A stretch of DNA of 64,000 nt. It comes from Candidatus Heimdallarchaeota archaeon (lineage in GTDB: Archaea > Asgardarchaeota > Heimdallarchaeia > Heimdallarchaeales > Heimdallarchaeaceae). The stretch's first letter is position 1. Each line of letters opens with the position of its first letter. Location: the NCBI GenBank assembly GCA_030603365.1, contig JAUVXV010000002.1, positions 256,001 to 320,000 on the forward strand, in the 5' to 3' direction. A program made the translations under genes and the position numbers. Of this stretch, positions 33,486 through 34,118 are shown in pieces. The notes under the pieces are model-generated. The model was not told the DNA's origin. It worked only from the letters and a program-made list of their open reading frames with translations, and ran no database searches.

Positions 33486-33509
33486 AAGATATTAATACGT
33501 GAACTGTTA

Positions 33510-34118
33510 ATATCTAAAGTCATTGTTTGGTTTGCAGTCATTTCAAGTCTGGGTTATTCAACAATAAAAACCTATGAATTCACATTGAGAAAAAGCAGAG
33601 GTTTCTTTTCTTATCAAGATATGAGAGATGCTGAATTGATTGGATTTCTTAGAGGGAGTGCATACTACCTGGCAGTATCCTTAGGTTTTTCAACCAAAGA
33701 ACAATGGACAAGTTCTCAGAATGCTGGGTTCATTACTGAAGATGATTGGATTTCAGCTCTCCAGAAAGGCTATGCAAATTCTAGTTCAAAAACTGAGATT
33801 GAAGAAATTGGTTTCTCTGACATTTTTGTTTTTAGAAATGAGCTCAGTACTAAACTTCGTAAAACTAGGTTTAGACTAAACAACCTTCTTTCTCAAATGA
33901 TAGAGTTTGATCAACTTGAAGAAACAAATTTGAAAGCAATGAATAGGTTTAGGAATCAAATTCGAAAAACTCACAATGAGTGTAGACTTCTAATTGATCA
34001 ATTGGTTCCTTTTTCAGGTATTTCCAGTGGTTTACCTGAACTTGATAAAACATTACTATCTGAATTAGAAAGAAGTGAAGCACTTCTGCAGAAAGCAAAG
34101 AGAATAATTACTGAGTAA
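33510..34118 (+). CDS. Membrane-anchored protein with six 14-aa GF repeats and a helical tail
   Basis: ORF track starts at TTG 33585, but the frame is open from 33486 and encodes a TM-like ISKVIVWFAVISSLGYSTI. Homologous to the C-terminus of 42200..45844. Confidence 0.65.
   Translation: MSKVIVWFAVISSLGYSTIKTYEFTLRKSRGFFSYQDMRDAELIGFLRGSAYYLAVSLGFSTKEQWTSSQNAGFITEDDWISALQKGYANSSSKTEIEEIGFSDIFVFRNELSTKLRKTRFRLNNLLSQMIEFDQLEETNLKAMNRFRNQIRKTHNECRLLIDQLVPFSGISSGLPELDKTLLSELERSEALLQKAKRIITE

Follow-up and report, generated by a model that had tools for sequence, protein, structure and literature searches.

The window, a stretch of 64,000 nucleotides from a Candidatus Heimdallarchaeota genome, contains a short open frame lying between a DUF998-like membrane protein gene and a transporter gene, and further downstream a long gene whose product shares its C-terminal part with the short frame. 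The features discussed here, all on the forward strand, are as follows:

32800-33485 (+): gene of a DUF998-like membrane protein; compared with four orthologs it lacks 1 nt near 33043, which breaks the frame, and its C-terminus is altered
33462-33518 (+): junction DNA between the end of DUF998 homology and the onset of receptor homology
33486-34118 (+): short frame of 210 codons, with no canonical start before 33585, very probably the 3' remnant of a surface-receptor gene
33519-33599 (+): second half of the receptor transmembrane (TM) helix and a basic juxtamembrane stretch, where homology to intact receptors sets in
33600-33818 (+): GF array, six G[FY] at period 14, predicted to form short helices joined by GF turns
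33819-34115 (+): three-helix bundle of the predicted model (model residues 79-177)
34263-35708 (+): CitMHS/ArsB-type transporter gene, whose upstream intergenic region matches relatives from ~34155
42200-45844 (+): intact paralog of 1214 aa, with an N-terminal hydrophobic segment, an FG-GAP/PQQ-type beta-propeller, bacterial TSP3-type repeats, a WDNW motif plus TM helix, a GF array and a three-helix bundle

The short frame is a single stop-free run of 210 codons, for which the expectation from local base composition is ~4e-8. Its G[FY] dipeptides fall at 33600, 33642, 33684, 33726, 33768, and 33810. This exact 14-residue period, with its six GF/GY repeats, had already been described in the initial annotation and is confirmed here, six G[FY] at any fixed period having been recovered in none of 20,000 shuffles. 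The proposed collinearity with the tail of the 1214-aa protein proved equally sound: the alignment covers 196 aa with 33% identity (E 2e-31) and is gap-free across the module. Six-frame profile searches located only two copies of this module in the genome, the short frame and the 1214-aa protein. In the latter, WDNW lies at 45182 and the GF array spans 45299-45514; FG-GAP and FG-GAP_3 score above cut-off, and TSP3_bac reaches 21.8 bits in seven stretches, below its cut-off of 25, while scoring above cut-off in a relative. The genome also encodes a 615-aa paralog (G000:C1, ~428-430 kb, reverse strand), in which the propeller and TSP3-type repeats are joined, through the same TM motif, to a different short tail devoid of GF repeats. 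A TSP3 gene cut at the start of C1 was considered as a possible orphan ectodomain and rejected, as it belongs to a subtilase that continues on C8 with a 124-nt overlap; this subtilase-like protease with TSP3-type repeats is split over the two contigs (G000:C1:1-1614, reverse strand, and the end of C8).

The suggestion that the short frame encodes a stand-alone membrane protein is not supported, given that there is no canonical start before its hydrophobic stretch and that homology begins in the middle of the TM helix. The frame opens immediately 3' of the TAA of the upstream frame; the TTG at 33585, its first ATG/GTG/TTG, already lies past the hydrophobic stretch, and the gene annotated in the database begins later still (ATG 33621, 165 aa). 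A weak GTGA lies six bases upstream of ATA 33510, and an SD-like motif accompanies 635 of the 1659 long ATG genes of the genome; thus, the missing canonical start is not decisive. A scan with a sigma-70 promoter model, which is ill-suited to archaea, gave results at chance level. The hydropathy of the 19-residue N-terminal window is 1.93, at the low end of that of intact TM helices (1.79-2.66). A profile of the intact receptors aligns to the short frame only from 33519, within the TM helix, and the ~60 bases before this position match neither DUF998 orthologs nor receptors nor the rest of the genome. The TM-like segment matching that of the receptor, as initially reported, is therefore half there: the helix is represented by its second half, and neither its first half nor WDNW can be read at the short frame in any of the three frames.

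Close homologs of the short frame (n = 13) occur in 9 of the 24 congeneric genomes, all in frames that carry TSP3-type repeats, WDNW and a whole TM helix; those below 1000 residues run off contig starts. In a maximum-likelihood tree of the module, the short frame is sister to a TSP3-bearing receptor of the congeneric genome G023 (support 100/98, 47% identity), and the 1214-aa protein falls in a different clade. Both clades are represented in G023, each by a TSP3-bearing gene; thus, a two-receptor state exists, and the present genome apparently lost the front of one of the two. The view of the short frame as a receptor without its ectodomain is upheld; its G023 sister carries TSP3-type repeats and the whole TM helix. 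The terminal branch of the short frame measures 0.32 against 0.73 for its sister, and the dN/dS between the two is ~0.32, a value that mostly reflects the time spent as a full gene. Neither internal stops or frameshifts nor faster change were detected in the short frame; its leave-one-out profile score (200.8) is ordinary (range 108-251), and independent contigs carry an identical module sequence. Retention of the short gene in relatives was not observed, an intact short form being found in none of the 24 congeneric or 399 phylum genomes, many of which are incomplete. The protein search returned no other stand-alone homolog of 115-368 aa, and a search aimed at homologs of greater length yielded none at E 0.001, a weak negative; two metagenome scans revealed no closer relative, and the genome scan returned the G023 contig only. 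The named homologs belong to Candidatus Heimdallarchaeaceae and Heimdallarchaeota.

The DUF998 gene directly abuts the transporter gene in three relatives. In others, the slot between them is occupied by a peptidase, by a whole GF-tailed receptor (G005) or by another TSP3 surface protein (G004, G007), and no stub occupies it in the relatives examined. In G004, G005, and G007, a whole TSP3 surface-protein gene immediately precedes the transporter. The intergenic match to relatives from ~34155 marks the right edge of the inserted stub. The 1-nt-deleted DUF998 allele is also found, ungapped, in an independent contig spanning 32902-33092, and of 25 loci tested DUF998 alone contains an internal frameshift, so that indel errors are not general. 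Read-through of a stop from DUF998 into the short frame is ruled out, since the DUF998 frame itself ends at 33078. Gene order in this surface-protein island is very fluid across relatives. In G007, four receptors lie in tandem (L028/L029, C48, 8.6-26.5 kb), three of them with nearly identical cytoplasmic tails, which suggests recent duplication or gene conversion. Within DUF998 (32800-33485), the 5' part is much nearer to G023 (dS 0.35) than is the 3' part (dS 1.0), and this contrast suggests a mosaic gene. A gene at 23768-24826 is 98% identical to its G023 counterpart, with neighbours at 67-84%, suggesting that it was recently exchanged. The transporter frame (34263) shows conservation 5' of its first canonical start in every relative, consistent with a non-canonical start.

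Overall, we consider it highly probable that the short frame is a recent 5'-deletion remnant of a second propeller/TSP3 surface-receptor gene. The deletion would have removed the promoter, the start, the ectodomain and the first half of the TM helix, that is, the front three-quarters of the receptor, and would have left the cytoplasmic tail behind the now-broken DUF998 gene. In support of this, receptor homology starts abruptly at 33519, inside a conserved TM element, and the short frame is nested among full-length genes in the tree. Against it, the stub is free of stops and frameshifts; a frameshift is present in the adjacent DUF998 gene. The deletion is probably recent, given a tail without stops and a branch that is not lengthened; the absence of decay fits recent loss, and is compatible with continued selection as well. 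Stubs of this receptor family arise with different breakpoints. For instance, in G013 ~3.9 kb of a receptor of the same family was cleanly deleted, leaving ~60 codons with the stop lost (TAA to TTA); the dN/dS of this stub is 0.44, compared with 0.07 in the adjoining gene and 0.15 in tails that are intact, with small counts at few sites. A third stub, from the clade of the short frame and broken before the last GF, is weakly indicated by a 589-nt metagenome contig.

Could the stub have been co-opted? An expressed short protein, starting at ATA 33510, TTG 33585 or ATG 33621, might serve as a putative adaptor or dominant-negative decoy of the 1214-aa receptor through module-module contact. The intact frame, the short branch, the normal profile score, the well-folded model (pLDDT 94) and the weak SD ahead of ATA 33510 all agree with such a role. 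In addition, two congeneric genomes encode soluble proteins that combine GF repeats with a helical region and a RING and whose genes have an ATG start and an SD-like motif, which makes stand-alone use of the module possible. Yet the short form is confined to one genome, its break falls within the TM helix and the neighbouring gene is broken too; stubs elsewhere break at other places and decay; the short frame and the 1214-aa protein are distant paralogs from different clades; and this assembly (89% complete) yielded no soluble GF-RING protein. Co-option thus seems unlikely, and the receptor and adaptor/decoy pair with a homotypic signalling domain, put forward in the initial annotation, is left unsupported by a short form seen in one genome and cut mid-TM. 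The decapitated paralog that it had named as the alternative accords far better with the breakpoint, the tree, the homologs and the context.

Remnant status would be illusory if the assembly were at fault, either because the ectodomain of an intact receptor was dropped or because of a one-base error between ATG 33462 and the module frame. This ATG indeed lies one base out of frame, beside a run of four A. Nonetheless, the assembly contains no N, the one internal frameshift in 25 loci is confirmed by an independent contig, no repeat occurs at the junction, no orphan ectodomain came to light, and joining the two frames would still leave WDNW and half of the TM helix missing. One contig (33927-34223) crosses the right junction; the left-junction interval 33410-33511 is covered by no listed contig, and in a contig that begins at 33512 the few bases to the left of 33519 do not suffice to span the break. 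We regard such an artefact as very unlikely. Tail shuffling, in which the module alone was inserted by recombination between paralogs and not left by deletion of a full gene, would yield the same non-functional or nascent fragment. The adjacency of DUF998 and transporter in three relatives, the fluidity of the island, the three tandem G007 receptors with near-identical tails and the C1 paralog with the same TM motif but a different tail would all be in keeping with it. On the other hand, the TSP3 genes upstream of the transporter in G004, G005, and G007 provide a ready precursor state for a deletion, and deletion is directly shown in G013; insertion seems very improbable. We retain the deletion remnant as the most likely reading of this locus.

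The module deserves attention in its own right. In the AlphaFold2 model of the short-frame module, six short helices are followed by a three-helix bundle (mean pLDDT 94), and for a long GF array the prediction is a single 9-residue helix in every 14 residues (pLDDT 98); long arrays and the module of this genus belong to one family (hhalign probability 99%). That the module was unrecognised still stands, with no family entry in Pfam, NCBIfam or PHROGs, where the best consistent matches of the GF repeat involve 2-5 of 24 members at weak E. Among 48,161 chains, the repeat rod obtained a best Z of 3.0, an absent match that does not prove a new fold; Foldseek gave no match at E 0.001 in PDB or BFVD, which does not thereby exclude a family. 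Feature searches of the ESM Atlas produced no usable match, and its structure search a single row above TM 0.5, a bacterial NYN-nuclease cluster. No description of a 14-residue GF repeat was found in the literature searched; in a paper on Asgard solenoids (PMC13734099) the terms "14-residue" and "TSP" are absent. Among helical tandem repeats, the GF repeat represents a variant not yet catalogued.

The profile of the GF repeat is present in 31 of 400 Asgard genomes, in single-pass membrane, multi-pass membrane and soluble proteins. The domains that follow the repeats in Asgard include PCI-like winged helices, RING fingers, a Zc3h12a-type NYN nuclease and, by eye, a HEPN-like RxxxxH motif. A search of 1.84 billion proteins gave 39 matches, bacterial ones included, such as an Aureimonas protein with a peptidoglycan-binding domain and a protein with an SH3 domain. 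The number of units varies from about three to more than twenty across proteins. Two congeneric genomes encode soluble proteins of ~398 aa, with an ATG and an SD-like motif (L066:847-2040, reverse strand; L070:1369-2562, forward strand), which combine GF repeats, a helical region, a winged-helix-like part, a zinc ribbon and a RING; these are the best candidates for a real cytoplasmic effector using the module. In three Asgard loci GF repeats precede a HEPN-like domain (RxxxxH by eye; L071:1009-2094, L068:1069-2121, L074:925-2043), and in a further one they accompany a Zc3h12a-type NYN nuclease (L067:544-2478). Up to 20 GF repeats are found in Gly/Ala-rich proteins of 600-670 aa, possibly from phages (P0023, P0035, P0036).

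The tail of the intact receptors, which the basic residues after the TM helix suggest to be cytoplasmic, is predicted to form a rod of 14-residue single-helix repeats capped by the three-helix bundle. Judging from domain architectures, the GF rod would most likely serve as a spacer or scaffold of tunable length. Asgard proteins outside this genus may use it to hold winged-helix/PCI-like, RING or nuclease domains off the membrane; in this genus the tail ends at the bundle, a putative docking surface. The claim of a receptor-signalling domain meets the difficulty that the module is not specific to Asgard receptors, occurring also in soluble Asgard proteins and in bacterial SH3 and peptidoglycan-binding proteins. 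Given its variable length and its presence in apparently exported bacterial proteins, a structural rod fits better than a fixed homotypic signalling domain. Similarly, shuffling with winged-helix, RING and NYN domains in Asgard, together with occurrence in bacteria, argues for a spacer or scaffold and not for a dedicated homotypic domain. One could hypothesize that the GF rod and bundle form an uncatalogued interaction module that recruits soluble GF-repeat RING/nuclease effectors to Heimdallarchaeial receptors, with ectodomain-less copies expressed as decoys that tune the signal; we find this decidedly unlikely. For the family, the adaptor idea stays alive through the soluble GF-RING proteins of the two congeneric genomes.

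Several known systems resemble parts of this picture. The 1214-aa paralog shares FG-GAP and TSP3-type repeats with prokaryotic TSP3-repeat surface proteins (TSP3_bac PF18884; Myxococcus MtsD and CglD; FG-GAP/PQQ-type propellers), MtsD and CglD matching it in part and far below their cut-offs. Unlike these, it is a single-pass protein with a folded cytoplasmic tail, and the stub lacks any ectodomain. Heimdallarchaeial single-pass receptors with winged-helix/PCI-like or RING tails display the same ectodomain, TM helix, GF array and helical region, yet in this genus the proteins end with the three-helix bundle and have neither a RING nor a PCI-like domain. Model residues 79-177, which form the bundle, superpose on the N-terminus of Not5/CNOT3 (Not5: Z 14.1, rmsd 1.6, 97 aligned) and on GAT domain and spectrin repeat bundles (Z 10-12). 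Identity to Not5, GAT and spectrin is 7-14%, the stub has no Pfam match, and such Z values are common for helical bundles; the likeness is therefore one of shape, not of homology or function. The repeat profile matches the designed toroid dTor_9x31L by sequence (E 1.5e-7), short helices joined by glycine turns being common to both; in contrast to designed toroids, each 14-residue unit of the natural repeat contains a single 9-residue helix, and global superposition is poor (TM ~0.2, rmsd 12.6). In death-fold or TIR receptor/adaptor pairs, one module is found both on a receptor tail and on a short protein. The likeness to such pairs is limited to the layout proposed earlier, with no sequence-family match here, and, unlike in those pairs, the short copy is unconserved and appears to be a deletion product.

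The stub itself represents ordinary gene decay. Its lasting value lies in the repeat, a 14-residue single-helix unit of high predicted confidence and without a family entry, which connects the surface receptors of Asgard archaea with winged-helix, RING and nuclease domains. Were it a true homotypic signalling module, Asgard archaea would possess a eukaryote-like receptor-adaptor logic; nothing here shows it. What the stub does show is that, in the archaeal group nearest to eukaryotes, the gain, shuffling and deletion of these receptors proceed quickly.
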